This document shows positions 17,765 to 44,244 of a stretch of 64,000 nucleotides of DNA, one piece after another; within the stretch, counting starts at the first letter, position 1; the number at the start of each line of letters is the position of its first letter. The stretch covers positions 22,224 to 86,223 of the forward strand of contig LSSJ01000002.1 of assembly GCA_001595785.1 (NCBI GenBank), written 5' to 3'. The notes below the pieces were generated by a model that made no database searches, had not been told where the DNA came from, and worked only from the letters and a program-made list of their open reading frames with translations. Both the position numbers and the translations under genes were made by a program. Source of the stretch: Euryarchaeota archaeon SM23-78 (GTDB lineage: Archaea > Nanobdellota > Nanobdellia > Woesearchaeales > SM23-78).

Positions 17765-17788
17765 GCTACATTCTACTAATTTTATGCT

Positions 17789-17909
17789 GAAATCTTGTCC
17801 GTCGGCGCCATTGTTTGCATTAGCTACTTTGTTTTTGTAGCTATGCAAAGGCCCGGCGAAGCTTTGTGAGCAGTTTAATAGCGAACAAAGCGGAGTAGGA
17901 CAAGATTTC
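17789..17909. repeat. MITE-like structured repeat, copy 1
   Basis: Perfect 12-bp terminal inverted repeats gaaatcttgtcc / ggacaagatttc. Internal palindrome tgcattagctac...gtagctatgcaa. Shares module gcgaa.caaagc.gagtagg with the copies at 37.6 and 44.1 kb. Confidence 0.55.
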
Positions 17910-17993
17910 AATAATGATTTTATAGCAAGGTTTTTATAGTTTAAATACCCTTCTCTTTTGGAAGGGGTGGGAATACAGGGAAAGGATGCAACA

Positions 17994-20411
17994 ATGGTAG
18001 AAGACATTCTCAAAAAGGAGGATAAACTTTCACCCGGCTATGTTCTAGGAAACAGGTATGAGATATTAGAAGAAATAGGCTTTGGAGGCATGGCTCGTGT
18101 TTATTCTGCTCATGACAAAAAACTTAAGAGAATGGTTGCACTAAAAGTTCTTGACAAAAAATTTTACATGAACGAAGAGTATGTTAAAAGATTTAAAAGA
18201 GAGGCTGAATCCATAGCTAAGCTAGACCATCCAAACATTGCTGAAGTGTATGATATTGATGAACTTGATAATAGGCTTTATATATCCATGAAATATATTC
18301 AAGGAAAAAGCCTTGATAAAATATTAGAGGAACACCACGGATTCTTTGATATAGAAACAGGGTGTGGGGTTGGGCAGAAACTTCTTGATGCACTAACACA
18401 TGCACATAGCCAAGGAGTTATTCATCGTGATATAAAACCGAGTAATGTGATGATTACAGGAGATGCCTGCTTTACATGCGAATGGGACCTTAAAATCTTG
18501 GATTTTGGTATTGCAAAAATACTGGATGATGAGACAATTCATACCCAGTTAACTCAGTACGACACAAGACTGGGCACACCTGAATATATGTCTCCTGAAC
18601 AGATTGATGGCGAGGAAACAACTGGAAAAGAGGATGTTTGGTCAACAGCTGTTATGCTTTATGAAATGCTTACAGGAGGAAGACTGCCTTTTGGTATTGT
18701 AAGAGAGATGAAGTATACAAAGAAGACAAAACAAATAGCATTGGGAGAACTGAAAGGACCACGAAGTATTAACAGTCAGATACCTAAGAATTTAGAAGAT
18801 GTTATTTTGAAAGGGCTTGAAAGAGATATAGATAAAAGGTATGATGCAAAAGAAATGCTTGAGGATATAACCAAATTTCTAAACAAAGAGGAATTTATTG
18901 TTGAAGGAAGTAAAGAAAGAAGAGTTGAGGTGTATGGTAGGCGAGAGTTCTTAAAAAGGATCATCTTATTCGGAGGTGCAGGATTGAGCGTATTAGGAGG
19001 ATCAAGTCTGATAATAATGAATCATATTGATAAGAAAAATTCATTATATCCAACATTTGAAAAGATAAAGAAAGCATCAACCTGGGAGGATTTAAAACCT
19101 ATAATGAAAGAGGTAAGAAACAAGAAATTCAGGTGGGTTCTTAAAAGGTCAAAACATATAAAAAAAGATCCTTTGCAAGACGATGCTACATTTGCGCCTT
19201 TTTCATTTAAAGAAAATAAAGTAGATTATACAGATAATTTGCATTATGGATCTCAGCTTATGAGAGATATTTATGAAATGGGATTTATAGAAACAGGCAA
19301 CCCTGACTTTTTAGAGCAGTTTATAAGGCTCTATGATTTAACCGATTTCAGTAAAACACGCACCTATAAATGTTACTTAGACAGATTTAAAATAAGCTGG
19401 GAAATGTTTCAATTTATGGAAAAAAATGGGTTCAAAGAGACTGCTGGGCTATTAAAAGAGAAAATGGGTTTTGCTGTAGCTGCGCAATTAAAAGAGAGGT
19501 ACCATAAAACTGGGTTCTTTCAGTACTTAAATCCTAGGGATAAAACTTCTACCAAACAATTGCTGCTTGTATACACGCAGATGCACGCAATACCGTTATT
19601 GACTGAAGGCATAAAAATATTTAATCTTGAGAAAGATTTGGGAATAGACCCTGAAGAATATATTAATGCTATAAGAGAGCAAACAAAAACATCAAATAAC
19701 TTGTTGATAGGAAAGGATAATGGGGTGCATTTTGGAGTGTATTTTAATCCATTTACCAAAGAATTAACACAGCTTCTTTTTGAAGCAAAATATGAGATAA
19801 AGGCGTACAGGTCGGATAATATAATCAAGTATCTTAGAGAAGGTTTGGAACCTGTGATCTGGCTGTATTCTACTATTGAATCAGTAGTTAACAGAGATAT
19901 TAAAGGAAACAGCATACAAACACAACTTCAAGAGAATATTATGAAGATATTTCCACAGTATTTAAAAGAAATAAATCAAGCAAAAGTAAAGTTAATCCAA
20001 TCATTTACAAGAATACTGAAGTTTTATAGAAATCATTTAAACAAGAATGGTTTAATTCCAGAGTTTCTTCCTGTTGAAGGTGAACCTATTGAAGGAGACA
20101 ATCCTTTAAACCTGGCATCCACATTTACCTATTTCACCTTTATAAATGATGTGTTAAACAATAAGAGCGTGATGACTCAATACTTACCGCAGGAGATAAA
20201 AAGACAACTTTCCAAAGAAAGAATAACACTGGCTAAAGTAATATATCAAAAGAGCTTTTTTAATAATAAGTTTGATTCATCTAAAAATTTATCTTTCTTA
20301 AAGAATTTGAATTATGAAGAAGAAAACAATAAAAAAGACATGGATAAAGAAGAAAACAAACCAGCCTTGATATATGTTCAAGATGAAAAAGAAGTTCTTA
20401 AAATAAAATAA
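17994..20411 (+). CDS. Hanks-type Ser/Thr protein kinase with TM helix and ~450-aa C-terminal domain of unknown function
   Basis: GFGGMARVY, ALKVL, HRDIKPSNVM, DFGIAK, GTPEYMSPE. TM ILFGGAGLSVLGGSSLIIM after the kinase domain. The track ORF opens with TTG at 17958; ATG at 17994 chosen as start. Confidence 0.8.
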   Translation: MVEDILKKEDKLSPGYVLGNRYEILEEIGFGGMARVYSAHDKKLKRMVALKVLDKKFYMNEEYVKRFKREAESIAKLDHPNIAEVYDIDELDNRLYISMKYIQGKSLDKILEEHHGFFDIETGCGVGQKLLDALTHAHSQGVIHRDIKPSNVMITGDACFTCEWDLKILDFGIAKILDDETIHTQLTQYDTRLGTPEYMSPEQIDGEETTGKEDVWSTAVMLYEMLTGGRLPFGIVREMKYTKKTKQIALGELKGPRSINSQIPKNLEDVILKGLERDIDKRYDAKEMLEDITKFLNKEEFIVEGSKERRVEVYGRREFLKRIILFGGAGLSVLGGSSLIIMNHIDKKNSLYPTFEKIKKASTWEDLKPIMKEVRNKKFRWVLKRSKHIKKDPLQDDATFAPFSFKENKVDYTDNLHYGSQLMRDIYEMGFIETGNPDFLEQFIRLYDLTDFSKTRTYKCYLDRFKISWEMFQFMEKNGFKETAGLLKEKMGFAVAAQLKERYHKTGFFQYLNPRDKTSTKQLLLVYTQMHAIPLLTEGIKIFNLEKDLGIDPEEYINAIREQTKTSNNLLIGKDNGVHFGVYFNPFTKELTQLLFEAKYEIKAYRSDNIIKYLREGLEPVIWLYSTIESVVNRDIKGNSIQTQLQENIMKIFPQYLKEINQAKVKLIQSFTRILKFYRNHLNKNGLIPEFLPVEGEPIEGDNPLNLASTFTYFTFINDVLNNKSVMTQYLPQEIKRQLSKERITLAKVIYQKSFFNNKFDSSKNLSFLKNLNYEEENNKKDMDKEENKPALIYVQDEKEVLKIK

Positions 20412-20424
20412 AAATATAAAAAAT

Positions 20425-20628
20425 TTAAGGACTTCCAGGTGGCTGACAAAGCGGGTCATCGTCAGGGCAGCCTTCGAATGATACTACCTTTCCAAAGCCT
20501 TCTGGTGTTATAGTCGGTGCTTCACTAAGACTTTCGGTGTTCTCGCTTTCCATCAGGAAAGCTCCACCTACACCCAATAGCAAGGCGCAGACTAATAGAG
20601 CTACAGCTACTACTACTATTTTATTCAT
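20425..20628 (-). CDS. Small secreted or lipoprotein-like protein (67 aa)
   Basis: Internal ATG at 20628 preceded by GGGGGTGAAAAT. Signal peptide MNKIVVVAVALLVCALLLGVGGAF. The longer track ORF (20425-20772) has an implausible N-terminus. Confidence 0.4.
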   Translation of the reverse strand: MNKIVVVAVALLVCALLLGVGGAFLMESENTESLSEAPTITPEGFGKVVSFEGCPDDDPLCQPPGSP

Positions 20629-20781
20629 ATTTTCACCCCCATATTGGGACGAAAATAAGAGCTTATTCTTAAAGGCTTCTGAGAAAACAGGATAAAAATC
20701 AGCTTTTTTTATCCAAGCATTATCAATCACAAAGAGATAACACAAAGATTTATAATAAAAAGAAAATATCACTTTTTAGGG

Positions 20782-22296
20782 ATGGTAAAAAAGAAAGTGC
20801 TAGAAAAGTTGATAAAAGAAAAAGATGAAGAAATAGCAGAATTAAAAAAAAAGGTTGAGAAATATAAAAAAGAAGCTATTGCTAATAAGTCAGAAGCTGA
20901 AGCATATAAATCACAATTAGAAGAACAAAAAATAATTAACCAAGAGCAACAAGAGTTGATAAAAGAGTATGAAGAAGAACTAGGAATAGAATCTAAAGAA
21001 GGAAAAGTAACAACAATAATTGGCCACTTGTCTAGAGCAAGCCATTATCTTTTTGAAACAAAAACACCTGATAAAGCAACACCTCATCTAAGAAAGAGCA
21101 TTAAATTAGATGATCAAAAAATTGTTCGATTAGATAATCTGACCAAGAAAAAAGAAATATCTGTATTTTTATGTAAGGCTAGAGATGGAAAAACTTTAAT
21201 CAGGCTAAACCGGCCAAAAGAAAAAGAGATTATTGAATATGGACTTACATTAGAAAATGCGTTGCTAATGGTTTATCCAAGTGCAGACATGGCAAACGCA
21301 GTGTATAAGGTATATAAAAGAACGCTTGAGGATAAAAATAATAAGCCGACTCGAGAGACTCCAAATCTTTGTGAAAAAATACAAGCCCAGGAATTTCTCT
21401 TGGAAAAAATTATACCTATTTCATATTTAACTCCAAATGGTCTGTTTAGTCTTTTTCATTTGATTGAAAGCAAAGATTTCTCCTCCCATATAAAAAAAGC
21501 ATTTATCGAGTCTCTGATTAAAAAACAGCTCAGAGATGTCGCATATCTAAGAACCAGAGAGTATGGCTTTGATAAAAATCTTATCATTAATTCTTCTCAT
21601 GGAGATAAAATGCTTGAGGTTTATGATGAAGCAAAAATATCTTTAACACCTAAAGAAAAAAGAAAAATTAAGGAGGCAGGAAAACTTATTGATGAAAGAG
21701 CGAACCATTCTTTTGTAGATGGTGCTTCTTGGAATTCCTTTCCTCATAAAATATTAGTAGACAGTTATTTTCATAACAAAGTAGCTAAAATGATTTCACA
21801 AGAAATAATAGATTATAATGAACTAAATAATGAAATAGAAGAGTTGGTAAAAAAGCACACTTATCGAATTGATCTTGATAAAATGGTAAGATTGACTTTT
21901 CCATCAGACGATGCAATACATACTTTGGAATGGCCAGTGCCCATATTACTTCCAAGTGAGAGAATAAGGTATGAACAATATTTTGTTGAAAAACTTTCTG
22001 AACATGGAGAGGATACAGAACACTACTGGGATTTAAGGGCGTTAGAAGGGTTTTATAGGCACATAAGAATGTGGTTCTTTTACAGACAAAACCCTGATAA
22101 CTATCCTGATCCTGAGGATGTATACAAACAGCACCATTTGAATATGTCTTTTTACAGCATTTATATACACACCTTTGGAAGAGGACCACCAAAAAAAGAG
22201 ATGATCAATACTAATCTTAGGAAAGGATTAGAATTAATGATGCATCCCAACTGTAGACCCCAAGCAATCAAATATCCTATTAATTATGCTGAATAA
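20782..22296 (+). CDS. Hypothetical protein with N-terminal coiled coil
   Basis: 504-aa ORF with a K/E-rich heptad N-terminus. No recognisable catalytic motif. Its 3' end overlaps the convergent gene 22234-23151 by 63 nt. Confidence 0.5.
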   Translation: MVKKKVLEKLIKEKDEEIAELKKKVEKYKKEAIANKSEAEAYKSQLEEQKIINQEQQELIKEYEEELGIESKEGKVTTIIGHLSRASHYLFETKTPDKATPHLRKSIKLDDQKIVRLDNLTKKKEISVFLCKARDGKTLIRLNRPKEKEIIEYGLTLENALLMVYPSADMANAVYKVYKRTLEDKNNKPTRETPNLCEKIQAQEFLLEKIIPISYLTPNGLFSLFHLIESKDFSSHIKKAFIESLIKKQLRDVAYLRTREYGFDKNLIINSSHGDKMLEVYDEAKISLTPKEKRKIKEAGKLIDERANHSFVDGASWNSFPHKILVDSYFHNKVAKMISQEIIDYNELNNEIEELVKKHTYRIDLDKMVRLTFPSDDAIHTLEWPVPILLPSERIRYEQYFVEKLSEHGEDTEHYWDLRALEGFYRHIRMWFFYRQNPDNYPDPEDVYKQHHLNMSFYSIYIHTFGRGPPKKEMINTNLRKGLELMMHPNCRPQAIKYPINYAE

Positions 22297-23151
22297 ATAA
22301 GGATATAATGACTTCTCACCAGAACTAAATTTGGTTTCTAAGAGTTCTTGTTTTAAGGATTTAATCTTCTGTCTCATTCTTAGCAGTTCTTTATCAGAAT
22401 AATTATAGAAGAAACGATAATAGTTTTCAAACAAATCATTTATTTGAGAGTAGATATCTTGAACATCAAGACTTATTTTAAAAGTTGGTTTATTAAGGAT
22501 AATATTTATTATATCCCTGTAATCATCACATATGCTCTCAATAACCCATATTATAAGATAGGTATATGTTGTCTTATCATCTTTATAGGGTTTCTTATTA
22601 AGCAGTCTTTGGCAGTAGTTGGTAAGCTTGTTAATAGTTTGTTCAAGAACAAGTACTTCTTTAAGTTTATCAGTGCTTTCCTCTCTTAGCCCGTCTAAAC
22701 TATTCTTTGCAAGGGAAAGGGCTACTAAGAAGATTCTTCTAACCAAGGTATCTAACTCTGATAAATGGTCACCGGAAACTGCCTTTACAACGCAGAGGTT
22801 GCCTTTTTGCTCTGTTATTTCATACCCCATTAGCATGGTGTTAATTCTTTCTTGTATTATTTTAATGGTCTCAGGATTGTTAAAGGTTATCTCTATCTCG
22901 TCATAACCAGATTTGTGGAGCACAGAAAGGATGCTATGAATAGCTCCCCAGTTAGTGTCTGAGAAATCAGCTTTAGTCTTTTTGATTAGAAGATGCTCTT
23001 GTCCTGGATAAATCGTTAGTACTTCTCCTTCATCATCAACATTAAGTTCATCTCCTTTCTTGATGTTGTTGGTTTTGACCCATTTTGATGGTAGAGAAAC
23101 TGTTAGGGTTGAAGGCCCGTGCAGAATTACTTTTCGCTTAATCTTAACCAC
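22234..23151 (-). CDS. AbrB/SpoVT swapped-hairpin domain fused to a PhoU-like helical domain (archaeal PhoU-type regulator architecture)
   Basis: N-terminus KVILHGPSTLTVSLPSKWVKTNNIKKGDELNVDDEGEVLTI is a typical AbrB/SpoVT fold signature. The remainder is alpha-helical with two similar halves. Confidence 0.55.
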   Translation of the reverse strand: MVKIKRKVILHGPSTLTVSLPSKWVKTNNIKKGDELNVDDEGEVLTIYPGQEHLLIKKTKADFSDTNWGAIHSILSVLHKSGYDEIEITFNNPETIKIIQERINTMLMGYEITEQKGNLCVVKAVSGDHLSELDTLVRRIFLVALSLAKNSLDGLREESTDKLKEVLVLEQTINKLTNYCQRLLNKKPYKDDKTTYTYLIIWVIESICDDYRDIINIILNKPTFKISLDVQDIYSQINDLFENYYRFFYNYSDKELLRMRQKIKSLKQELLETKFSSGEKSLYPYLFSIINRIFDCLGSTVGMHH

Positions 23152-23347
23152 CCCCTAAGCATGACTGAGAAAAGGGTCCTTATATAAATATCTTTCTAAA
23201 AATATACATATGTATATAATGTGATAAAAAAGTATATATAACCAATTTGTGATAATTTATCCTGAAAAAAAATTAGAGGTAAAAAACAGTCCTAATTTAT
23301 CCAAAATATAATTTAAAAAGAATTCAAAAAACAAAAGGGTGAGAATT

Positions 23348-23668
23348 ATGGGGAGCATAATAAGTTCAAGAAGAGAAGATGCGAAGGTGGTTGTAGAAGC
23401 AGCACTAGATTATGAAGAGCTGGTTCAGCTTAGAGGGGAGATAGATAATGTCCACTTATTCTCGGAAAAGGTAGCTGATTTAGAGACTAATATATCAAGC
23501 AGAGGAAAGAATGAAGCCACTAAATACTTCTTAATACCAAGGCATCTGAGAAAAGATTTGAGCATAAGAGAGCCTGTAAGCTGCCAGAGAATAAACACAC
23601 CTGATAAAGCAATCTTTGTATATGTGGTTAACAGAAATGTTTTTCATGGAGTTAAAAAGCTAAGGTAA
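23348..23668 (+). CDS. Small hypothetical protein
   Basis: ATG at 23348 has AAGGGTGAG 7 nt upstream. The track ORF opens with GTG at 23339, inside that ribosome-binding site. Confidence 0.4.
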   Translation: MGSIISSRREDAKVVVEAALDYEELVQLRGEIDNVHLFSEKVADLETNISSRGKNEATKYFLIPRHLRKDLSIREPVSCQRINTPDKAIFVYVVNRNVFHGVKKLR

Positions 23669-23716
23669 AACAGAAGAGTAAGAGAGAATATGCTAATGGA
23701 CCAAGGGTGACTAAAA

Positions 23717-24262
23717 ATGGAATTCTTATTAGGGATAAGTGAGAATAAATTTGTTCTTATTCTTCTTAAAAGCAAAAACTACTTAGAAGAGCTGCACAAG
23801 ATGATAAAAGAGGTAAAGAAACATCACACAAAAATATGCTATGTATGTCTCTCAAAGCCATATTCAGAGGTGATTGACAATCTTAAAAATGAGAGAATAA
23901 ACTATGAGCATTTTATCTTTATAGATGTTATTAGCAGTCTTCACTACAAGCTCAAACCAGTCAAGAACTGCATCTTTGTTACAGGCCCAGAGAACTTAAT
24001 AGAACTAAAAAAAGCTATAAAAAGGGCAGTAACTAAGAATGAATGCGAAGCAGTAATCTTTGATACAATATCAACCCTGCTCATATACCAACAGACTCAT
24101 TCAATAATAAGATTCACACATGAACTTATAATTGATAAAGACCAAAGCACAATAAACAAGGTATATGTAGTCTTAAAGGAAAAAGGGATTTACAGAAATG
24201 AAAGCGCAAAATTAATAAAGGACCTCAACTTATTTGCGGATAAGACAATCGAAATGAAATAA
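23717..24262 (+). CDS. Walker-A-less KaiC/RecA-fold domain protein; paralog of 17237-17764
   Basis: KICYVCLSKPYSEVIDNLKNERINYEHFIFIDVISS versus KVCYVCLNKPYNSIIDNLKANNLDLDKYFFIDVLTS. AAGGGTGA upstream of the ATG. Directly upstream of the receiver-domain gene. Confidence 0.55.
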   Translation: MEFLLGISENKFVLILLKSKNYLEELHKMIKEVKKHHTKICYVCLSKPYSEVIDNLKNERINYEHFIFIDVISSLHYKLKPVKNCIFVTGPENLIELKKAIKRAVTKNECEAVIFDTISTLLIYQQTHSIIRFTHELIIDKDQSTINKVYVVLKEKGIYRNESAKLIKDLNLFADKTIEMK

Positions 24263-24323
24263 ATAAAAAAAGAAACAAAAATATAAAAATATAATTAATT
24301 TGATAAAAAAAGGAGTTCGTAAA

Positions 24324-24692
24324 ATGCCTAAGACAATAATGATAGTGGATGATGAGCCTCACATGGTAGAGCTAGAAAAAGCCATCCTTGAAGCAGAAGG
24401 GTTCAAAATAATAAGTGCTTTGGATGGAAAGCAAGCATTAAAAATCCTTGAGACAATCAAGCCAGACCTCGTAATCCTTGATATGATGATGCCAGGCATG
24501 TCAGGCAGAGAGGTGTGCGAGAAGATAAGAAAGAATCCTAAGACAAAGAAGCTGAAAATAATATTTGTAACAGTTGCCAGGTTCTCAGAGATTGGTAAGA
24601 ACCAACTCAAAGGCATGGATGTTCTTGATTATATCACCAAGCCCTTTGATAATGAGGAGTTAGTGAAAAGGGTAAAAAAGATTTTAGGATAA
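24324..24692 (+). CDS. Stand-alone CheY-like response-regulator receiver domain
   Basis: IMIVDDEP, conserved phospho-acceptor context VILDMMMPGMSG, KPF motif. AAAGGAG 8 nt upstream of the ATG. Confidence 0.8.
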   Translation: MPKTIMIVDDEPHMVELEKAILEAEGFKIISALDGKQALKILETIKPDLVILDMMMPGMSGREVCEKIRKNPKTKKLKIIFVTVARFSEIGKNQLKGMDVLDYITKPFDNEELVKRVKKILG

Positions 24693-24705
24693 ATAAAAAA
24701 ACAGT

Positions 24706-25491: not shown

Positions 25492-25715
25492 TTTCCCATC
25501 ACCTCTTCTAACTTCTTTATTTCAGGATATTTATTAATTATACCTCTAAGATGCTTCTCTGTGCTTTCCTGTCCTAAAAGCTTTGATAACATCTCCTTGC
25601 ACGCTAATAAAAGTTCCTCTGGATTGCTCTCATCATAATATTTCTCAAATGTTTCTCTAGTGTCCTTACCAAACAAGGATTCCATTAGTTCTATAATGTC
25701 CTGTTTTAATCCCAT
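25488..25715 (-). CDS. Small hypothetical cytoplasmic protein
   Basis: 75-aa ORF translationally coupled to the membrane protein gene. Lies downstream of the histidine kinase in the same orientation. Confidence 0.35.
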   Translation of the reverse strand: MGLKQDIIELMESLFGKDTRETFEKYYDESNPEELLLACKEMLSKLLGQESTEKHLRGIINKYPEIKKLEEVMGK

Positions 25716-25746
25716 TTTAATCTAAAAAATTATTTAAACCTTTTAT

Positions 25747-27834: not shown

Positions 27835-27858
27835 TCTGCCTATAATTTTTTACTATGT

Positions 27859-30380: not shown

Positions 30381-30494
30381 CCTCTCTTTTCAAATCCTCA
30401 AAAAACTCTTAAAATAAGAGTTTTATAACTATATAGTTACATCTATTGAATTACGGGTATTTTAATCTTTCGTTAATTATGGGATAAATATATA

Positions 30495-31127
30495 TCATTT
30501 TTCTTCTTTAAATTCAATAATCTCAGCTAATCTTTTAACAAATTTCTTTGCATCTTGCATTATTTCTTGTGCTTTACTCTTTTCATACTCTGGATCAGCA
30601 GAATATCTGGCTGCTCTATCTTTTTTTCTTGCATCATCCAAGGTTATGATATATTCTTCTTCTAATATCTTTTTTCCCTGGTCAAATAATTCTAAAGCTT
30701 CTTTTTCTAACTCATCTTTAATAACATAGAGTTTTGCTAGTGCATATTTGGTTGCTTGATGGTCATCACTCTTATAGTTTTGTTTAGCAAGAGCAGATAA
30801 AGCAGCATGGTACATGGCATAATAAGAAATAGCTATTACCCAACTATAACATTGGAAATCATCTGGTAAAACTAATTGTTCTTTAATACCAGCATTCTCT
30901 ACAACACCCATCATCATTTTTCCGACTAATAAGTTGTGCCTTGCATTCCTTAGATAGTTCTTGGTTAATCGTTTAACTCCTATTTTTTTACGTAGATAAA
31001 ACCTATCCTTGCTTTCTTTTCTAAGATATTCTTCAAACTGATTTTCAATTTCTCTTTTGTTGAATATTGGATTTTTATCACTCATTTTTTGCTTCCAGTA
31101 CAATCTTCCAAAAGGTTTCAGCACCAT
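30495..31127 (-). CDS. Putative HEPN-like partner of the adjacent nucleotidyltransferase
   Basis: Helical protein with an R...RH motif (LRNARHNLL). Overlaps the MNT gene 3' end. Alternative start at ATG 31085 would give an 8-nt overlap. Confidence 0.4.
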   Translation of the reverse strand: MVLKPFGRLYWKQKMSDKNPIFNKREIENQFEEYLRKESKDRFYLRKKIGVKRLTKNYLRNARHNLLVGKMMMGVVENAGIKEQLVLPDDFQCYSWVIAISYYAMYHAALSALAKQNYKSDDHQATKYALAKLYVIKDELEKEALELFDQGKKILEEEYIITLDDARKKDRAARYSADPEYEKSKAQEIMQDAKKFVKRLAEIIEFKEEK

Positions 31128-31701
31128 ATAGGATTATATGATTACTTAAGACTTCTTTTCCTACATTCAGTTCGTCTTTGTTGGTTATCATGTTTTTAAA
31201 CACCCGGCTATTAACCACAATCTGATTAATCTCATAATCATACATTGTTTCTAATGCACCTATTTCTCTTTGAATTATATTATTCTTGTCTTTTTTTTCA
31301 CATATAACCAACAAGTCAATATCGCTGGATTCAGTTGCTATTCCCTTTGCATATGAGCCAAAAAGAATAATGGATAATACTTCAATCTTGTTTGTAATCT
31401 TATTAACTAATTCTTGAAATAATGATTTTAATGCTGCTCTTTTGTTAAGAAAATGTTCTTTTTCATCAATAGAGTTGAGGATGAGCATTCCTTTGGTTTT
31501 TTCATTTTTTAGGTTTAAGGAACAAACAGTGCTATGGCCCCTTGTTTTTTTATTAAGTATGTTTTGTTTTATTAATTCAGTGGTATTATCATATATGAGA
31601 TGGTAACTCCTCTTTAGTTCATTTTTTATTTGGTGTATAGTTAATTCTTTATCAAGTTCTTTATTGAAGAGAGCAACTATTTTCAATTTTGTATTATTCA
31701 T
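31078..31701 (-). CDS. wHTH plus minimal nucleotidyltransferase (MNT) protein
   Basis: Catalytic motif LFGSYAKG...SDIDLLVI (GS...DxD). N-terminal HTH-like region. Paralog of 787-1380. Confidence 0.7.
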   Translation of the reverse strand: MNNTKLKIVALFNKELDKELTIHQIKNELKRSYHLIYDNTTELIKQNILNKKTRGHSTVCSLNLKNEKTKGMLILNSIDEKEHFLNKRAALKSLFQELVNKITNKIEVLSIILFGSYAKGIATESSDIDLLVICEKKDKNNIIQREIGALETMYDYEINQIVVNSRVFKNMITNKDELNVGKEVLSNHIILYGAETFWKIVLEAKNE

Positions 31702-31770
31702 AGTATTCTCCTTTTTAGGATAATATTATTCCAAATAGGATAACTCATATATAAAGCTTTGGGTTCTAAT

Positions 31771-31923: not shown

Positions 31924-31961
31924 ATCTTACCATAGTGTTTTCATATAAATATTTTTCCTTT

Positions 31962-32180
31962 AATCACAAACCAAAAACCTTTTTGAGCAGTTGCGTTCAA
32001 AATCTACGTCTGTGCCTTGATTTCCTCAAAAATCAAAGATTTTTGGGACACAAAATTTTAAATTTTGTTGTGCCGCAGATTTACGCAGTAAATCAAGGCA
32101 TGGCCAGACAGAGCTTATCCATGTTCCCATCAAAAGAGCGAAGCTCTTTTGGGGTTCCAAAAACCTATGGTTTTTGTAAC
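31962..32180. repeat. MITE-like structured repeat, copy 2 (upstream flank of giant gene 32345-37537)
   Basis: Nested inverted repeats (gtctgtgccttgatt / aatcaaggcatggccagac; gatttacgcagtaaatc; ccaaaaacctatggtttttg). Shares modules ggccagac.gagc...ccatcaaaagagc..gctcttttggg and aattttgttgtgcc with the 37.6-kb copy. Confidence 0.55.
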
Positions 32181-32344
32181 TATATGGAGTACAGGGTTAT
32201 GGTAAGCGGAGTAGGAGATTTTGAACGCAGCCCCTTTCTGAGCATAAAGTTTTTAAACTCCGAATATCAGGAATTATATCTAGAGGAAAAGGGTGAGTGA
32301 TTTTTACTTGCTCAAATATATATATATATCCGCGCTGAGCAACG

Positions 32345-37537: not shown

Positions 37538-37545
37538 TGATATAA

Positions 37546-37757
37546 TAAAAAAAATCTTTGGCCGTCTGGGCCGTTAATTGCATTGCCTGCTCATTTTTGC
37601 AGGCAAGCAATGGCCAGACGGAGCCATCAAAAGAGCTTTGCTCTTTTGGGATGCTCAGAAAAGTTTTACTTTTCTGGCACTCAAAATTTTCAATTTTGTT
37701 GTGCCAAAAACTCCGTTTTTGAGCACTTTGCGAAGCAAAGCAGAGTAGGCCAAAGAT
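37546..37757. repeat. MITE-like structured repeat, copy 3 (downstream flank of giant gene)
   Basis: ~14-bp terminal inverted repeats aaaaatctttggcc / ggccaaagattttt. Internal stems gccgtctgg/ccagacgg and gcattgcctgc/gcaggcaagcaatg. Shares modules with copies 2, 1 and 4. Confidence 0.55.
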
Positions 37758-37892
37758 TTTTTACAGCACAAAACATAAATTTTAAATACTAATAACAACC
37801 AAGAAAAACAAGAGGAAAAAAAGAGGTGGGGTAGTATAGAACCTAAGCCAAAGAAAAAAATCAAGGACTTCTTTAACCAAAGCAAAAAACTA

Positions 37893-38822
37893 GTGCAAGC
37901 ACCTAAAGAACTGCCAGAGATAACTGCACAAACGCAGCCTCCTATGCTTCCAAAAGAAGAGAAATCAATGCAACTAGAACAACCCCAGCCAAAACCATTT
38001 CAAGCATCAACCCAGGAACAACCAAAAAAAGAGTTTAAATTACCCAAAATAGAGCGCTCACCTGTTCAGGAAAGAAGTCACTCACCTCTGCACGAGGACA
38101 CAAGTGTTCAGGAAGATGATATGAAAGAATTTGAAGAAGCCATAAATAAAATAAATATAGACATGGTACACAGTGAAACACCAGAAACCTATAGCTCAAG
38201 TAAGGAAGAAGAAACTGAATATTATAAACCAGCAGAACTAGGAGAAGGCTATTTCTCAGAAATAGAGCATTACATAAAAAATAAGGATGTGAATGAGATA
38301 ATAGATGATGTAATGAAAAAAGACTTCTTAACTAGTATGAAAGACTATCATGGTGCAAGAGCCCAAGGAAAACCATTCTACCTGCACCAACAAGACCTTA
38401 AATACAAGTTAGAAAAAAAGATGGAGCAACTTAGAAGCTTGGAAGAAGAATGGCACAGCCTAAAGGCACAAATAGAAGAGAAGGAGAAGAAAAGAATAGA
38501 AATAGAGCAAAGAATAGAGCAGGAAAGCCAGGAACTAAAAGAATTATTCAGACAAATCAAGGTAAACCAGATATTAGAGCAACAATCACCCAAAGAACAC
38601 TACTTTAAGCTTAGAAATGGGCAAGAACTTAAAAACCTAAATGACCTGAGAAAAGTCCTTGAATACATGAGTGATGAGGATTTCAACCACCATGTAAACC
38701 AGGAGAAGAATGATTTTGCTATATGGATTAGAGAAGCCCTGCAAAACAAAGCGTTATATGAGAAGATAAAGGATACGAAGACAAGAGAAGAACTGCAAGA
38801 AATACTAAAGAACCCTCTATAA
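37893..38822 (+). CDS. Acidic coiled-coil protein whose C-terminal ~75 aa are homologous to the N-terminal extension of the KaiC-like ATPase
   Basis: GTG start. C-terminus NLNDLRKVLEYMSDEDFNHHVNQEKNDFAIWIREALQNKALYEKIKDTKTREELQEIL versus KaiC-like N-terminus NLWELRDFLSKTSDEIFTRYVNEEKNDFESWIRHSLKNQELADLVRKKKTREETVQII. Confidence 0.5.
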   Translation: MQAPKELPEITAQTQPPMLPKEEKSMQLEQPQPKPFQASTQEQPKKEFKLPKIERSPVQERSHSPLHEDTSVQEDDMKEFEEAINKINIDMVHSETPETYSSSKEEETEYYKPAELGEGYFSEIEHYIKNKDVNEIIDDVMKKDFLTSMKDYHGARAQGKPFYLHQQDLKYKLEKKMEQLRSLEEEWHSLKAQIEEKEKKRIEIEQRIEQESQELKELFRQIKVNQILEQQSPKEHYFKLRNGQELKNLNDLRKVLEYMSDEDFNHHVNQEKNDFAIWIREALQNKALYEKIKDTKTREELQEILKNPL

Positions 38823-38852
38823 ATTAAGATAATTAAAAAAAAATCTTTCTAC

Positions 38853-39623
38853 TTAAGATATGTCTGCATAGAAGTAATAAGTGGTTCCTGGGGTACCAAA
38901 GCTAATACTCCTGTTCTCAGCAACAATTATCTGAAAGTCATAAGTGTTATCCAAAGACGCATTATTATTAAAACCCCAAGCATCCTGTTCTATAAAAGTT
39001 GCAAATATAAAGTTACCATCAGTACGGTCATAGAGTGTGAGCTCTTGGAAATAAGCATTTGAATCAACTGTCTGAGCAGTATCATTCACATAAGTAGCTG
39101 TGCTCTGGCAACTGTTAGCAGCAATATTTGAAGGACCACTCATATCCATTGCGCTGTGAAGGCTGGCATTAAAAGTGTTATTAATACTATAAGGGTCACT
39201 ACTACTCATTCCAAAGAAGTTCTGCTCACTTATTATATTAGTATCATTAGCACACTCAACATTAGTCCAGTCCACACTATCATTCCTACTTACAAAAACA
39301 AAACCTGACATAGAAGTACTGTTCATACCCCACTCATAAATACTCCAGCCATCACTATTCCTTAAAACAAGCATACCAGTAATGTTTCCAACATAACCCT
39401 TCCAAGAAGGTTCTTGCTGAGTAACTGCAAGATTTATAGTAATAATATAGCCTCCAGGATCACTTCTGGATTCAATAACAGAAGTATAGGTAGAATTACT
39501 GATATAATTAACCTCAGCCCCAACAGGATCTGCACTAGTAAAATGAATTATAATAAATGTAAGATACAGAACCAATCCTAGTATTAGAAAAACCAGTTTT
39601 AGCTCCTGCTTGATCTTCCTCAC
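38853..39623 (-). CDS. Small secreted sequon-rich protein, family member A (C-terminal YYFYADIS)
   Basis: GTG start with GAGGTGA upstream. Sec signal peptide with FTSA|DP site. SWKGYVGNITG...IYEW and YDFQIIVAEN...TTYYFYADIS family blocks. Confidence 0.7.
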   Translation of the reverse strand: MRKIKQELKLVFLILGLVLYLTFIIIHFTSADPVGAEVNYISNSTYTSVIESRSDPGGYIITINLAVTQQEPSWKGYVGNITGMLVLRNSDGWSIYEWGMNSTSMSGFVFVSRNDSVDWTNVECANDTNIISEQNFFGMSSSDPYSINNTFNASLHSAMDMSGPSNIAANSCQSTATYVNDTAQTVDSNAYFQELTLYDRTDGNFIFATFIEQDAWGFNNNASLDNTYDFQIIVAENRSISFGTPGTTYYFYADIS

Positions 39624-39695
39624 TTAGTCACCTCGTTGCAAGCAAAAAAATATAAGTAACAGGGCAATAACCCTGTTCCTTACTATAGTTGCGGT

Positions 39696-40478
39696 TTATT
39701 CTATCTCTGCCCAAAAGTAGTAAGTGGTTGTTGTGTCTTCAAAACCGTCCTGCCCGTTCTCTGCTACTAGGAGCTGGAAGTCGTGAGTTACTCCGTCAAA
39801 GCCCACAATGTCTGTGCTGTTATCAGCTACATTGTTCTCAATAATTGTAGTGAAAATAAGAACAGCTGTGTCTGTTAACAACACATTCTCAAAGTTCTCA
39901 TTTACTGGAGCTCCGTTCTGATAAGCATTTGTAGCAGGGCAGGTATTTGTTGTTATGTTATGTGTACCAACCTTAAAGAAAAGGTTCATGTTATCAGTAA
40001 AGGTCTCATTAATACCATCTGAATCATCATCTTGAATCCCAAACCAGCCTTCTGCTGTATCAACAGTAAATCCATTGCTTCCATCAAACTCAAAGCAGGC
40101 AATAGCACTCCAGTTAATAGTGTTATTTATGCAAGCATAAATCTCTCCTTTTGGCTCCATAGTAGACCAGTTGTAAAACACATTGCCACTTGAATCCTCC
40201 AAGGTCAGAGTACCTGTAATCTCTCCATAGTAACCCTGCCAAGCCTTGGTCGTAGAAATGGCTGTTAGGTTGAGCTCTGTTATGTTACCTGCTTCTGCTT
40301 CTGTTTGAGAAGGTGGGTAAGAAGACAGGTCTGGTCTTGATGATGCACCAGGCGCTATGTTTGTCACGCCAAAGGGCTCATCAGAATCTGCCCATACAAA
40401 TACTGCCATTAGACTAAAGACGGCTAGAAAGCCGAATATAAGTAGAGTTGTACTTATTTCCTTTTTCATATTTATCAC
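39696..40478 (-). CDS. Small secreted sequon-rich protein, family member B (C-terminal YYFWAEIE)
   Basis: Signal peptide VWA|DSDEP. AWQGYYGEITG...FYNW and HDFQLLVAENG...TTYYFWAEIE. CTTGCAACGGTGA immediately upstream of the ATG. Confidence 0.7.
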   Translation of the reverse strand: MINMKKEISTTLLIFGFLAVFSLMAVFVWADSDEPFGVTNIAPGASSRPDLSSYPPSQTEAEAGNITELNLTAISTTKAWQGYYGEITGTLTLEDSSGNVFYNWSTMEPKGEIYACINNTINWSAIACFEFDGSNGFTVDTAEGWFGIQDDDSDGINETFTDNMNLFFKVGTHNITTNTCPATNAYQNGAPVNENFENVLLTDTAVLIFTTIIENNVADNSTDIVGFDGVTHDFQLLVAENGQDGFEDTTTTYYFWAEIE

Positions 40479-40561
40479 CGTTGCAAGTTTTTAAGTTATG
40501 TTTAAATGCAAGCTTATCTAGGGTGACATACCCTAAATTAATATACACATAGGTATACCCA

Positions 40562-40576
40562 TATATAAATGTTTCG
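40562..40576 (-). promoter_or_regulatory. Conserved BRE/TATA-like promoter motif (minus-sense AAATCGAAACATTTATATA) for gene 39696-40478
   Basis: 15-mer tatataaatgtttcg is identical at 48097-48111 and 52078-52092. On the minus strand it reads CGAAACA (BRE-like) plus TTTATATA. Confidence 0.5.
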
Positions 40577-40608
40577 ATTTTTAATGGTTTTTAAAGAAAA
40601 AAACACTA

Positions 40609-41595
40609 TTATGGACTCTCAGCAGCAAAAACCACAGTACCATTACAAATACCAAAAGGATTAGTAGTAAGATTAACATGAAGCCTCCAATAAGTAGCAT
40701 TAATCACATAGCCACCAGAACCAGAAACAGTCTGTTTATCAACAGTAAGACCTTCTATAGTATCAGGAGCTACGGCTAGACGAGTCATCGCAGCATATCC
40801 TGTGGCTGAGCTCAAATCCCATCTTTCGTTGTGTATAGTAATGTTTCTTACTGCACAAATCATTGCCATTCCAGCACCTGCCACAGAATCATTACTCCCA
40901 AAACCCCATACACTTACATTAATAGGAACATTACCAAAGTTTGTAACATTTGCTGAGGGTGGAGGGGTAGCAATATAAGTGTCAGTAACAGCCATATTAC
41001 CAAAATCAATAACATTAGTAACATTTAAGGCTAGAAGAGCATTAATAGAGGAATTACGAACGTCAGTATCCTTAGCACCATACGTGTCATTAACAGTAGC
41101 ATTCATCTGCCAAGTACCATTATTAGCATGATAATAAACATCAAAAACACATGTCCAGTTAGTAAAATAACCACTTGAACTTGTATTTGTGCAACTACTA
41201 TTACTGTAATGCGTATTATTATCATCAGGGTCTGCTGAGGAATTCAGGTAATAAAAGAAAGTTCCATTCACATAATTAATATCTCCTCCTCCATTATAAT
41301 CGCGAATTTCAACTAAACAACTTACTGTTTGGGTAGTACCTGCATTCAAAGTAACAGGATTCTCACTATTACACGTTATGTTAAGAATCTCAGGAAAAGA
41401 ATTAGTAATATTAACTGTTGTACGCACACTTACATTCTCATAATTACCACTAGGACCCCAGCTAGTCACAGGAAGGCCTTTGAAAGCTAAGAATCCAATA
41501 AATAATAGAAACAGCACTAAGAGAATCTTTTTAACTGGATTAATACTTAGATAATCCAAAATTTCTCTTTTTAACCATGCTCTGTCTTTATTCAT
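40609..41595 (-). CDS. Secreted sequon-rich protein, second family (paralog of 51045-51977)
   Basis: Mature N-terminus WGPSGNYENVSVRTTVN and C-terminus VNLTTNPFGICNGTVVFAAESP closely match the paralog. N-terminal signal anchor. Confidence 0.7.
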   Translation of the reverse strand: MNKDRAWLKREILDYLSINPVKKILLVLFLLFIGFLAFKGLPVTSWGPSGNYENVSVRTTVNITNSFPEILNITCNSENPVTLNAGTTQTVSCLVEIRDYNGGGDINYVNGTFFYYLNSSADPDDNNTHYSNSSCTNTSSSGYFTNWTCVFDVYYHANNGTWQMNATVNDTYGAKDTDVRNSSINALLALNVTNVIDFGNMAVTDTYIATPPPSANVTNFGNVPINVSVWGFGSNDSVAGAGMAMICAVRNITIHNERWDLSSATGYAAMTRLAVAPDTIEGLTVDKQTVSGSGGYVINATYWRLHVNLTTNPFGICNGTVVFAAESP

Positions 41596-41622
41596 TTAAG
41601 TATATACCTATTCATTAATTGT

Positions 41623-42384
41623 TTAAGGTCCTAGTTCAATATAAAAGTAATAAGTTGTTCCACTTGAACTCTCATTCTCAGCAACTATGGCTTGGAAGTC
41701 ATAAGTAGCATTATTAACCTCAAAACCCCATGAGTTGTCATTTATTAAAGATGTATAAATAAAATTAGTACCATCATGTAAGGCTACTTCCTGGAAATCA
41801 GCAGTAGGACTAGGATCTTGCTTAGTATTATTCACCCAAGTAGCTAAAGCCCGACAAGCACCCTGAGCAAAAGGCGTGCCTGCTGTACTAAAAGCTTTGT
41901 GAGCGTTTACTGAAGTATTAAAGGTGTTGTTAATATTATAAGGAACATTATTAGGTAATCCTAAGGCGCCTTATTCTGTGAGCATACGAGCATTTGTAGC
42001 ACAACTTACATTTGAAAAGTTTATGGCATTGCTCCTGGTAATGTATACCTCTCCTTCAACAGTTCCTCCTGAAGGCCATTCGTAAATACTATAATTATAT
42101 CCATTCTGCAACACATACTTTCCTGTGACATTTCCAACATAGGCCTTCCAAGCATCAGTTTGTTGTTCAAGATCTAGATTTATAGTCACAATAACTCCTC
42201 CATCATCTGTCCTGCTATCAGCGGTTCTATTAGGTCCATTATCAACATCAGGGGTTCCTGATATTGTTGCTCCTTGAGGATCAGCATAGGCAAGGTATAA
42301 TGATAAACCACAAAGGATTAGGGTTAACACTAGGTAAATCATTAGGATTCTGGTTGTTCTTGTGTATGGTTTTTTATTTGTCAC
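41623..42384 (-). pseudogene. Family member C of the small secreted proteins, interrupted by an in-frame TAA at 41971-41973
   Basis: Track ORFs 41971-42384 and 41623-41835 are in the same frame. Reading through the TAA gives continuous family homology (...NARMLTE*GALGLPNNVPYNINNTFNTSVNAH...ATWVNNTKQ...YDFQAIVAENESSSGTTYYFYIELGP). The stop aligns with Gln in paralog A (SEQ versus TE*). Confidence 0.6.
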
Positions 42385-42450
42385 TATCCTCGCCTTTCCT
42401 CAAATTAAACTTTCATTGACTTGTTTTATCTGCCTCTATAAACTCGTTAT

Positions 42451-43767
42451 TTAGCTTAGCTCAATGTAAAAGTACACAGTAGTTGTTCCTGCAGCGTCTG
42501 ATTCTCCAACTAGGAGCTGGAAGTCATGTGTTGATCCGTCAAATCCTGTTTCAGTGTCATTAATCAGGGTGGTATAAACAGCATCTCCTTCTGCGTCTGT
42601 TAGTAGTACCTGATAAAATGCATCTGCTGATGGACTACCACCGGCATCATAGGTGTTTGTAGCATTACAACCAGTAATACCTGATACACTTCCAACATTG
42701 AAGGTTGGGTGCGTGGTACTGGTGTAAGTATTGTTTATTCTGTCTGAGTCATCTGGGTCTATTCCTAGAGTACCCTCAATAGCAAGTGCTTCAGCTTCAC
42801 TAGCACATCCAATTCCACTCCAACTCACAGTGCCATCAGCAGAGGCAAATACTTCGCCTGCAATTGAGCCTCCTAGACCAGTCCAATCATAGAACACATC
42901 ACCATTACTATTCTCTAAGGTGAGGTTCCCTGATATCTCACCATAGAAACCAGCCCAGTGCTCTGTTATTTTTGTTCCAGAGATGTTTATCTCTGTTACA
43001 TTTCCAGCCTGGACTGCAATGCTATCAGGCGAGCCACCACTAAGATTGGCTCTGCTTGAAGCAACCAAATCTACTCCTGCTCCTTGTACTCCAAAAACCA
43101 GTGTTATCCCTGTATAGAGTAATCCCAAAACTATCATTAACAAAACTGCTTTTTTAACATGGTTTGTATACCTCATTTTAAGTGCATAGAACTCAGAGGA
43201 TTTTTTGTTAAGAACTTTGCTTAACTCATATTTTGTTTTTATATCAAAGAATACTGTTTTTGAAATCCCTTCGGGGTTTTTTATTAAAACTTTTTTTAGT
43301 TGTGTTTTCAGATTTTGATCATCTGAAACCATCACTAAATTTATGTTATCAGAATTTGTAAGGTCAAGCAACATAGCATCTATCTTGTTTATATGTTCTT
43401 CTGCATGCCAGAAAGCCTTTTCAAGGTAGTAGTGAAGCTCTGGCTTATCAAGGAACCATATTTTCAGGATTATCTTATTGTAATCACTTAATTTGTGAAA
43501 CTTTTTATCTACAAAGTCTTGGGTGCTTGCTATTAAGAAAGAATGATTTCCAGCCAGAGAGTAGAGCAGCCTTGGCTGCCCCTTATCCCTGTTGGAAATC
43601 CTTTTGCTTTGAACAAGACCGGCCATCTCTAGAAGACGTAGTTGCTGACTTATGTTTGCAACTGAGGTGTTGGACAGTTTTGCCAGCTGGAGTGGAGACT
43701 TGCTTCCTGAGGAGAGTATCTTCAGGATGTCCCATTTAGAGGCCGTAAAAAGGGTTTCTTGTTCCAT
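42451..43767 (-). CDS. Membrane-anchored one-component regulator: cytoplasmic ArsR/TrmB-like wHTH, single TM, extracytoplasmic domain of the small-secreted-protein family
   Basis: N-terminus LQLAKLSNTSVANISQQLRLLEMAGLVQSKRISNRDKGQPRLLYSL (wHTH). TM VLLMIVLGLLYTGITLVFGV at ~residue 205. Ectodomain HWAGFYGEISG...FYDW, HDFQLLVGES...TTVYFYIELS. Confidence 0.7.
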   Translation of the reverse strand: MEQETLFTASKWDILKILSSGSKSPLQLAKLSNTSVANISQQLRLLEMAGLVQSKRISNRDKGQPRLLYSLAGNHSFLIASTQDFVDKKFHKLSDYNKIILKIWFLDKPELHYYLEKAFWHAEEHINKIDAMLLDLTNSDNINLVMVSDDQNLKTQLKKVLIKNPEGISKTVFFDIKTKYELSKVLNKKSSEFYALKMRYTNHVKKAVLLMIVLGLLYTGITLVFGVQGAGVDLVASSRANLSGGSPDSIAVQAGNVTEINISGTKITEHWAGFYGEISGNLTLENSNGDVFYDWTGLGGSIAGEVFASADGTVSWSGIGCASEAEALAIEGTLGIDPDDSDRINNTYTSTTHPTFNVGSVSGITGCNATNTYDAGGSPSADAFYQVLLTDAEGDAVYTTLINDTETGFDGSTHDFQLLVGESDAAGTTTVYFYIELS

Positions 43768-44060
43768 TTTGTTTTTTTATGCTTGCAACGGTGTTGATTA
43801 TAAAACCAATTCCCGCCGTTTTTAGACGACAGGAATTGTTTAATGGCTTCCAGTAGCGTTTCACTATTTTTTATTATCTTGGTATACTTTTTGGTATAAT
43901 AAAATCCTAATAGCACAACTCATATTTAAATATTTCGGTTTTTAGTTAACTACTGTACCTAAACAAATTATGAATTAAGAAAATAAAGAAAATACACTAA
44001 TTTATTAAAAAGTGAATTAGAGGGTTAGAAGGCTTAAAAATGCAGAATTTGAAAATTGAG

Positions 44061-44224
44061 TTTAAAAAGGCCTACTCCGATTTGCTCACAAAATGTTCGC
44101 AAAGCTCCGCCGTGCCATGCAAAACAGCAAAAATAAAATTTTTGAGCATACAAAGCAAAAAACTTTGTATACAGCAAAAAAGCTGTTGTTGCATATGATG
44201 GCTGCGACGGCCTTTTTAAACTCA
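44061..44224. repeat. MITE-like structured repeat, copy 4
   Basis: 15-bp terminal inverted repeats gagtttaaaaaggcc / ggcctttttaaactc. Contains the reverse complement of module gcg.agctttgcgaa....gagtaggcc shared with copies 1 and 3. Confidence 0.55.
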
Positions 44225-44244
44225 AAAAAGTTAATAAAAAAACC

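Follow-up and report, generated by a model that had tools for sequence, protein, structure and literature searches.

Along 64,000 nucleotides of the archaeon SM23-78 (GenBank assembly GCA_001595785.1, contig LSSJ01000002.1, positions 22,224 to 86,223 of the forward strand; hereafter, the window), four short intergenic elements named E1 to E4 are found, bounded by inverted repeats and rich in hairpins, and they raise the question of whether they are pieces of mobile DNA, genes for structured RNAs, or both. The initial annotation of this DNA, made from the letters alone, had left the choice between non-autonomous transposable elements and structured small RNAs (sRNAs). Each half of that proposal turns out to be right in part, in that mobility and fold are supported, while neither a classical MITE (a miniature transposable element with inverted repeats) nor a stand-alone sRNA gene is. 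The reading that best accommodates the evidence, to which we assign a probability of roughly one half, is that the elements form a family, not described before, of short intergenic repeats that have no coding capacity, are or once were mobile, occur in some Woesearchaeota (DPANN archaea), and are defined by the fold of a single strand rather than by any shared terminal sequence.

When read on the GTC…GGAGTAGG strand, all copies follow one three-way-junction plan. The terminal helix, P1, spans 12-18 bp and is formed by the two ends of the element, which had been described as terminal inverted repeats and whose three quoted pairs are exact; its inner end is always CC/GG or AC/GG. The arm P2 follows P1 with no spacer, begins with GUC, and reads GUCKNNGCC … GGC(AUGGC)CAGRC, after which a joint of 3 nt (GGA, GAA, AGA, or GUA) leads to the arm P3, GCUUUGY-GA-NN-loop-NN-GA-RCAAAGC, made of a 7-bp stem, tandem G.A/A.G pairs, 2 bp, and a loop of 4-13 nt. 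A near-invariant joint, RGAGUA, then leads from P3 back to the 3′ strand of P1. Copy length ranges from 113 to 242 nt, and the minimal form of 113-126 nt is found in E1, in E5 and E6 (two copies located outside the window and assigned to the same genome), and in L031 and L059 (copies on other contigs, named after their loci). E4 carries one additional hairpin within P2, and E2 and E3 carry several within P2 and/or P3; extra hairpins can sit in either arm with the core undisturbed. The short modules in varying order that had been reported to recur among the window copies are real, and they are best read as one conserved junction core with hairpins inserted into its arms in E2, E3, and E4. Specifically, gcgaa.caaagc.gagtagg corresponds to the joint together with the 3′ half of P3, tttttgagca corresponds to the P3 loop and the 3′ strand of P3, and the reverse-complemented arrangement described for the fourth copy is correct, E4 lying on the minus strand. 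The extra hairpin modules of E2 and E3, searched for in all loci, are not found elsewhere.

A covariance model trained on five copies (E1 and four from other contigs) recovers the untrained E2, E3, E4, L066, and L069, at the E-values listed in Table 1 for the window copies, and also detects a new copy, E6, in the pheT-pheS spacer of the same organism. The E-values of the model reach 1e-34, the similarity of the copies is far beyond chance, and with the filters off nothing is found in the window besides the four copies. The model bears out all four elements as members of one family. E1, E3, and E4 lie at the coordinates first given for them, while the range given for the second copy (31962-32180) differs from the true one (31990-32231) and omits the 3′ core (32206-32215) and the 3′ arm of P1. 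The elements are indeed richer in GC than their surroundings (0.38-0.45 versus 0.19-0.39 for whole intergenic regions of the window; 0.31-0.38 for the intergenic regions that hold an element; about 0.35 overall), and they are full of nested hairpins, their folding energies lying 5-12 standard deviations below those of shuffled sequence. Perfect inverted repeats of at least 13 nt with arms no more than 300 nt apart number six in the 64 kb, and four of these six are terminal helices of the elements.

The covariance analysis that the initial annotation had called for reveals a common fold with compensatory changes in every helix. Standard pairs occupy 95.7% of the cells and both sides have changed at 18 of 29 pairs, in an alignment of 11 copies that was fitted to the model, which favours structure, and whose members are related by descent and so are not 11 independent trials. 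None of 500 shuffles reaches any of the pairing measures, sliding the partners by 1-3 columns lowers pairing to 33-45%, and RNAalifold predicts the same helices independently, in agreement with the folds of single sequences. The sequence of P1 is different in every copy and its pairing is kept, with 10 of 12 pairs covarying; likewise, the inner hairpin of P2 is maintained with varied sequence (GCCAAU/AUUGGC, GCCUGC/GCAGGC, AGCUAC/GUAGCU). Moreover, the fold belongs to one strand. In all 11 copies the more stable folding is found on the GTC…GGAGTAGG strand, including the five copies that are antisense to the surrounding operon, of which L031, for instance, folds at -58.0 kcal/mol on this strand versus -39.1 kcal/mol on the other; the core helices hold 11 G.U cells versus 4 A.C cells. 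Since the asymmetry is also present in the operon-antisense copies, it belongs to the element and not to the local mRNA, and since each element folds better on its own strand also where the mRNA would carry the opposite one, a function within the local transcript is probably not what maintains the fold. The fold may rather mirror the state in which copying or recognition of the element takes place.

The family extends beyond the window. Metagenome and genome collections were scanned with exact patterns centred on the 3′ core, a design by which divergent relatives would be missed, and the genuine copies among the chance matches are those at L015, L031, L059, L060, L066, and L069; the scan of the genome collection returned mostly chance matches, with L015 and L031 as its only genuine copies. 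Locus L060 is assigned to the organism of the window, its L14e protein being 100% identical to that of GCA_019322785.1 (named by NCBI as Candidatus Woesearchaeota archaeon), and the 20 kb around the rpl14e gene hold two copies, of which E5 occupies the rpl34e-rpl14e spacer and E6 the pheT-pheS spacer. The protein adjoining E1, together with an identical E1, is found on contigs of the metagenome-assembled genome GCA_019322785.1 and of several metagenomes. Altogether, six copies lie in the 84 kb assigned to this one genome, all of them intergenic, at about one per 14 kb, and the remaining five copies come from separate contigs with 35-49% GC. GenBank lists the contigs of L031 (CAZJZJ010000008.1) and L015 (CAZOXR010000020.1) under "uncultured Methanosarcinales archaeon", yet their loci have 37% GC, and the aconitase-family protein of L031 has its best named homologues in Woesearchaeota, at 62-75% identity, which suggests mis-binning or mislabelling. 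A protein of the 49%-GC contig L066 likewise has woesearchaeal proteins as its best named homologues, and on present evidence the family appears to be woesearchaeal and to span 35-49% GC. Two pattern scans of viral contigs gave chance matches only, and the plasmid and phage collections gave no match.

The positions of the elements are not conserved between related genomes, and four insertion sites are empty in relatives. Syntenic loci of 14-21 kb from seven related species (~127 kb in all; L073, L075, L081, L083/84, L085, L086, and L089) hold no copy, and in these relatives the rpl34e-rpl14e, pheS-pheT, lysW-hcs, and hydrolase loci are element-free, with gaps of 0-153 nt or overlapping genes. 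Specifically, the E5 site is a 13-nt gap in L073, pheS and pheT overlap or abut at the E6 site, the lysW-hcs spacer occupied by the L031 copy is 94 nt long and element-free in L086, and the two genes flanking the L066 copy have presumed counterparts in L089 that overlap. The change at the E5 site can be polarised. Several Woesearchaeota have a conserved hairpin of ~50 nt (Table 1) between rpl34e and rpl14e; in L075 and L083 it is 12-15 nt away from the start of rpl14e, in L081 68 nt, and in the organism of the window the same hairpin is parted from the rpl14e start by 14 nt, E5, and 36 nt. An adjacency found in the relatives is therefore interrupted by E5, which identifies E5 as an insertion. 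The hairpin itself, with CUGA and a closing stem at its end, might serve as a leader of the ribosomal-protein gene or as a small RNA of the guide-like kind. An empty and a filled site are also found on scaffold L015, in which the same locus of ~100 nt is present on both sides of a 10-N gap, once empty and once filled, with flanks about 90% identical and the gap exactly at the repeat; the two versions would be alleles of different strains or the products of a local duplication. What has been inserted consists of AGGTTTATCC, the element from P1 to P1, and TT, and no duplication is found at the junction.

Taken as a MITE-like, non-autonomous mobile repeat defined by its single-stranded fold, the element would be copied or moved via an intermediate, either RNA or single-stranded DNA (ssDNA), of one defined strand. 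A trans-acting protein would recognise the junction core, namely GUC, GGA, RGAGUA, and the G.A-flanked P3, while P1 would need only to pair, joining the two ends, and an inserted copy would be passively carried in any transcript that crosses it. The analysis demonstrates the shared fold, the compensatory changes, the strand asymmetry, the presence in multiple copies, the patchy occurrence among relatives, and one empty/filled site, whereas the type of intermediate, the existence and identity of a mobilising protein, and any effect on neighbouring genes are what we infer here. In a bolder version, which is speculative and held with low confidence, the family would represent a new class of archaeal mobile nucleic acid with a folded single-stranded intermediate, no conserved termini, and no target-site duplication, the junction being either a self-processing catalytic RNA or the recognition structure of a DPANN enzyme.

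Several observations weigh against a family of single-stranded mobile repeats. E2 is flanked by a direct repeat with 11 of 12 matches, a hint of DNA transposition with staggered cuts for at least this copy; among 110 mismatched pairs of control flanks, 2 reach 9 or more matches. The DNA read comprises about 84 kb of the carrier genome and short stretches of the other carriers. Domains of a transposase, integrase, reverse transcriptase, or HUH enzyme are absent from the open reading frames (ORFs) of the window that were screened, and the search of the sampled DNA for a long autonomous version with the same ends, up to 6 kb, gave only chance pairings. The empty and filled sites of L015 flank an assembly gap and could be a local duplication rather than alleles, and the relatives used for the other presence/absence comparisons are only 60-80% identical at the protein level, so that loss and gain are formally inseparable except at E5, for which the state in the outgroup is clear. 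Lastly, the copies are fairly old, 20-40% divergent and with large indels, and this age, together with a core kept across genomes of 35% and 49% GC, also fits an RNA that benefits its host.

The likeliest of the rival readings is a family of genes for trans-acting structured sRNAs, either ribozymes or scaffolds of a ribonucleoprotein, which would have multiplied by duplication in the genome and been transferred now and then; the three-way junction would be the functional core, and P1 would close the mature RNA. This reading is favoured by covarying helices combined with junction nucleotides and a P3 that stay conserved in genomes of 35-49% GC, it agrees with the consistent strand asymmetry, and the tandem G.A motifs of P3 would be typical protein-binding features. 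It is also in line with the high GC of the elements relative to their AT-rich surroundings, as genes for non-coding RNAs (ncRNAs) are often GC-richer than their surroundings in AT-rich archaea. We nonetheless regard it as unlikely. Aligned upstream regions contain no motif resembling a B recognition element (BRE) or TATA box at a fixed distance (about 26 nt upstream of the 5′ end would be expected for an archaeal sRNA gene), L031 and L066 leave 2-13 nt to the neighbouring genes and thus no room for a promoter, and five of the 11 copies are antisense inside operons. Moreover, no copy is syntenic in any of the seven relatives, size varies through nested hairpins, and the density is ~1 copy per 14 kb.

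Comparison with known RNAs offers no established family to which the elements could be assigned. The suggested Rfam search yields no match on any element at the scopes tested, with 0 matches to Rfam 15, self-cleaving ribozymes included, at gathering score in the window, none relevant at E<=10 around E1, and nothing relevant at E<=1 in five other carrier loci, and ARAGORN finds no tRNA or transfer-messenger RNA genes. The Hgc RNAs are GC-rich ncRNA islands in AT-rich archaeal genomes, and the elements are likewise GC-richer, strongly folding intergenic islands in such a genome; Hgc RNAs, however, are single-copy and syntenic, and Rfam, which holds them, has no match here. The joints of the three-way junction (0, 3, and 6 nt: none, GGA, and RGAGUA) do not fit the hammerhead ribozyme core CUGANGA/GAA/H on either strand when compared by hand, and GUC is base-paired with covariation (GUG…CAC in L066). 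AGUA recalls the AGAA of the hairpin ribozyme, yet the topology differs, and the features that define 5S rRNA are absent.

A different RNA-level explanation is that the elements act in cis, co-transcribed with their neighbours as a 3′-end hairpin that terminates, processes, or stabilises the mRNA, like the ERIC, REP, or SPRITE repeats of bacteria, a role that would be compatible with a mobile origin. The genomic context provides part of its appeal. Most copies begin 2-25 nt past the upstream stop codon (2-5 nt for E6, 7 nt for L031, and 2 nt for L066). E1 shares the direction of both its neighbours, with the stop of a DUF7504/KaiC-like gene 23 nt before it and a Ser/Thr kinase gene 48 nt after it, E3 lies 12 nt downstream of the stop of a gene for a 1730-amino-acid surface protein, and E4 lies 19 nt downstream of the stop of the minus-strand gene 44245-45018. 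Furthermore, P1 is often an A-run paired with a T-run around a strong structure, E3 ending in GATTTTTT, and an orientation-dependent effect on mRNA stability is documented for ERIC repeats (PMC3184786). Orientation, in contrast, is mixed, with about six copies co-directional with their neighbours (E1-E4, L015, and probably L069) and five antisense inside operons (E5, E6, L031, L059, and L066). The better-folding strand is always the element's own, whatever strand the mRNA carries, and E5, E6, and L031 sit inside operons, where a terminator would do harm. This explanation is accordingly rather doubtful.

The transposon half of the initial proposal, in its classical form, holds that the elements are MITEs, deletion derivatives of an insertion sequence (IS) that a DDE transposase, bound to the terminal inverted repeats, mobilises in double-stranded form. 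Small size (MITEs measure less than about 500 bp), lack of coding capacity, multiple intergenic copies, terminal inverted repeats of 12-18 bp, and patchy distribution among relatives all agree with it, as do the P1 sequences that are related across genomes (E2 with L031, E5 with L015) and the 12-nt direct repeat of E2, which counts as its one supporting datum. MITEs have terminal inverted repeats in common with their parent IS and generate target-site duplications (PMC3184786). The present family shares with the Correia, Chunjie, and Sulfolobus SM elements the small, non-coding, multi-copy nature, the bounding inverted repeats, and the stable hairpins, but it fails both defining tests, a shared terminal sequence and a target-site duplication of fixed length. 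The six copies of one genome have six different terminal sequences, with only the inner CC/GG constant, and there is therefore no single transposase-binding site. The recommended check for target-site duplications gives no general signal: among the 11 copies, the longest word shared by the two flanks averages 3.9 nt versus 3.7 nt in mismatched control pairs (6.3 versus 5.4 nt with one mismatch allowed), the flanks and outermost pairs hold no common word, TA, or 5-mer, and the empty/filled site of L015 has no duplication. Compensated internal hairpins and strand asymmetry are not predicted by double-stranded recognition, and no transposase gene or long element was seen in the DNA sampled. A classical MITE is therefore improbable.

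The last alternative, that the elements are chance palindromes in AT-rich spacers or small protein genes, is hardly credible: ORFs of 52-121 codons overlap them, and the antisense ORFs of L031 and E4 begin with a similar peptide when compared by eye, but untrained copies are recovered with family E-values down to 1e-34, the spacing between conserved blocks differs among copies by 0, 1, or 2 modulo 3 so that the frame is lost, several copies have stops in all three frames of one strand, and Pfam has no match to the overlapping ORFs, which are spurious, as had been supposed, and an antisense small protein is rejected on the same grounds.

If the elements are indeed mobile repeats with a single-stranded fold, the closest analogues in behaviour may be, in our best reading, the bacterial bcr1 and ERIC repeats. 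We know of no transposase identified for either of them, and ERIC has longer variants that arise through internal insertions. The bcr1 element of the Bacillus cereus group, of ~155 bp, is a short intergenic repeat, considered a mobile sequence of a special class, with non-conserved distribution among close relatives, and compensatory base changes keep its branched fold at the RNA level (PMC3184786). The family described here is likewise a short intergenic repeat with non-conserved positions and a fold kept by compensatory change. Unlike bcr1, which is bacterial, has 5-bp flanking direct repeats, and is known to be transcribed, it is archaeal (DPANN), lacks a regular flanking repeat, has a different junction core, and shows no sequence similarity to bcr1. 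The ERIC sequences, or IRU, are ~127-bp imperfect palindromes that occupy transcribed intergenic regions of Enterobacteriaceae in either orientation (PMC3184786). The two families are alike in size, in the long terminal pairing that joins the ends, in the occurrence in either orientation, in longer variants with internal insertions, and in copy number that differs widely between lineages, whereas ERIC has a conserved terminal sequence and TA flanks, and here the conserved nucleotides are at the junction and the terminal helix varies.

The closest mechanistic analogue of the proposed behaviour may be found in the REP/RAYT and IS200/IS605 systems, the anatomy of which is absent here. In REP/REPIN and IS200/IS605, HUH Y1 transposases recognise a folded single strand, with strand asymmetry and no target-site duplication. 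REP is a hairpin of 20-40 nt with a 5′ GTAG, and the ends of IS200/IS605 are two separate subterminal hairpins, with no terminal helix and with insertion beside a fixed tetranucleotide. A REP/REPIN assignment is rejected, as the unit here measures 113 nt or more and forms a three-way junction, GTAG is confined to the 3′ joint GGAGTAGG, and no HUH domain was seen in the DNA sampled. An origin from IS200/IS605 (PATE) is also rejected, as the ends pair over 12-18 bp, P2 is unlike P3, and the left flanks have no common word, where insertion 3′ of a fixed tetra- or pentanucleotide would be expected, the missing duplication being the only feature that fits. Integron attC sites were considered as well; the ends do not fit the R''/R' boxes (RYYYAAC … GTTRRRY), copies occur in both orientations, including inside the ribosomal-protein and pheST operons, unlike the one-orientation cassette arrays of integrons, and the screened ORFs of the window include no integrase. 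A limited search of open-access text on repeats or structured RNAs of DPANN, Woesearchaeota, or Methanosarcinales returned nothing relevant.

Table 1. Positions of the elements and their parts in window numbering, and of the hairpin upstream of rpl14e in other loci; bit scores and E-values are those of the covariance model.
Feature	Position	Strand	Sequence	Remarks
E1	17788-17910	+		123 nt, minimal copy; 124.7 bits, E = 2e-33
E1 P1 arms	17788-17800 paired with 17898-17910	+		
E1 5′ core	17799-17809	+	CCGTCGGCGCC	
E1 arm P2	17801-17857	+		joint GAA at 17858-17860
E1 arm P3	17861-17891	+		with tandem G.A pairs; joint GGAGTA at 17892-17897
E2	31990-32231	+		242 nt; 46 bits, E = 2e-10; outside the training set
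E2 P1 arms	31990-32007 paired with 32214-32231	+	GTTGCGTTCAAAATCTAC / GGAGATTTTGAACGCAGC	
E2 GTC	32008-32010	+	GTC	additional hairpins within both P2 and P3
E2 P2 3′ strand and joint	32102-32112	+	GGCCAGACAGA	
E2 3′ core	32206-32215	+	GCGGAGTAGG	
E2 left 12-nt direct repeat	31978-31989	+	CCTTTTTGAGCA	abuts E2; possible target-site duplication
E2 right 12-nt direct repeat	32233-32244	+	CCTTTCTGAGCA	1 nt past the end of E2
E3	37549-37762	+		214 nt; 61.1 bits, E = 9e-15; outside the training set
E3 P1 arms	37549-37563 paired with 37748-37762	+		
E3 5′ core	37562-37572	+	CCGTCTGGGCC	
E3 P2 3′ strand and joint	37612-37622	+	GGCCAGACGGA	followed by four extra hairpins
E3 shortened P3		+	CTTTGCGAAGCAAAG	after the extra hairpins
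E3 3′ core	37740-37749	+	GCAGAGTAGG	
E4	44056-44225	-		170 nt; 71.6 bits, E = 8e-18; outside the training set
E4 P1 arms	44056-44072 and 44209-44225	-		
E4 5′ core	44200-44210	-	CCGTCGCAGCC	extra hairpin nested in P2
E4 P2 3′ strand and joint	44106-44116	-	GGCACGGCGGA	
E4 3′ core	44071-44080	-	TCGGAGTAGG	
Conserved ~50-nt hairpin	L070:9775-9825; L075:9932-9985; L081 and L083		GGCAUCC…AGGUUUUUGGUGACAAAAACC…AAAUCUGAGGAUGC	in L081 and L083 just upstream of rpl14e

The surroundings of the elements contain other features that deserve mention. Directly upstream of E2 and divergent from it, a HEPN and nucleotidyltransferase gene pair (30495-31701, minus strand) constitutes a putative toxin-antitoxin module. 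E3 and E4 flank a cluster of paralogous signal-peptide proteins (38853-39623, 39696-40478, the C-terminal half of 42451-43767, and 44245-45018) that end in …YYFWAEI/YFYIELS and have no Pfam match, one of them being fused to an ArsR-type helix-turn-helix domain. Within the same cluster, the minus-strand ORF 41971-42384 encodes only the N-terminal part of the paralogous secreted-protein family, and the ORF-free stretch 41596-41970 (minus strand) matches the DNA for the C-terminal part of the paralogues at 38907 and 39750 (repeat family D20); judging from this match, 41596-42384 is probably a frameshifted or decaying paralogue. At 56638-64000 on the plus strand, one ORF of more than 2454 codons, absent from the ORF list so that the region merely looks ORF-free, runs off the end of the window and encodes another giant repeat-rich surface protein. 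Between the convergent genes 45717-47516 (plus strand) and 47654-48073 (minus strand), the spacer holds at 47564-47634 an inverted repeat of 14 bp without mismatch, AAAGCTCCCTATTG / CAATAGGGAGCTTT, around a G-rich loop of 43 nt; its sequence shows no relation to the family, and it may represent a terminator or a structured element of some other kind. Lastly, the end of one contig (L068:4213-4388) carries a ~82-nt tandem repeat, whose units hold GAGTAGG, GAGCTTTGCGA, and GGGAGCTTTGCGACCGCA beside short hairpins; it scores only 14.8 bits with the model and was treated as unrelated, and its resemblance to the P3 and joint motifs would be due either to chance or to very distant kinship.

Woesearchaeota and other DPANN archaea have small, streamlined genomes, in which copies of this family are inserted even within the ribosomal-protein, pheST, and lysine-biosynthesis operons. 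By extrapolation from density, not by count, several dozen copies would be present per genome, and at such density the family would be a substantial, previously unseen genome component. Its copies also give rise to spurious ORF calls and to breaks in assemblies such as the L015 gap. The covariance model is a ready tool for a census in metagenomes. The fold, with about 25 conserved junction nucleotides, is a candidate for a new protein-RNA or protein-ssDNA recognition system or for a new ribozyme, and if the bolder reading, that of a new class of archaeal mobile nucleic acid, is true, no small mobile element made of structured RNA or ssDNA would have been described in DPANN archaea before this family.

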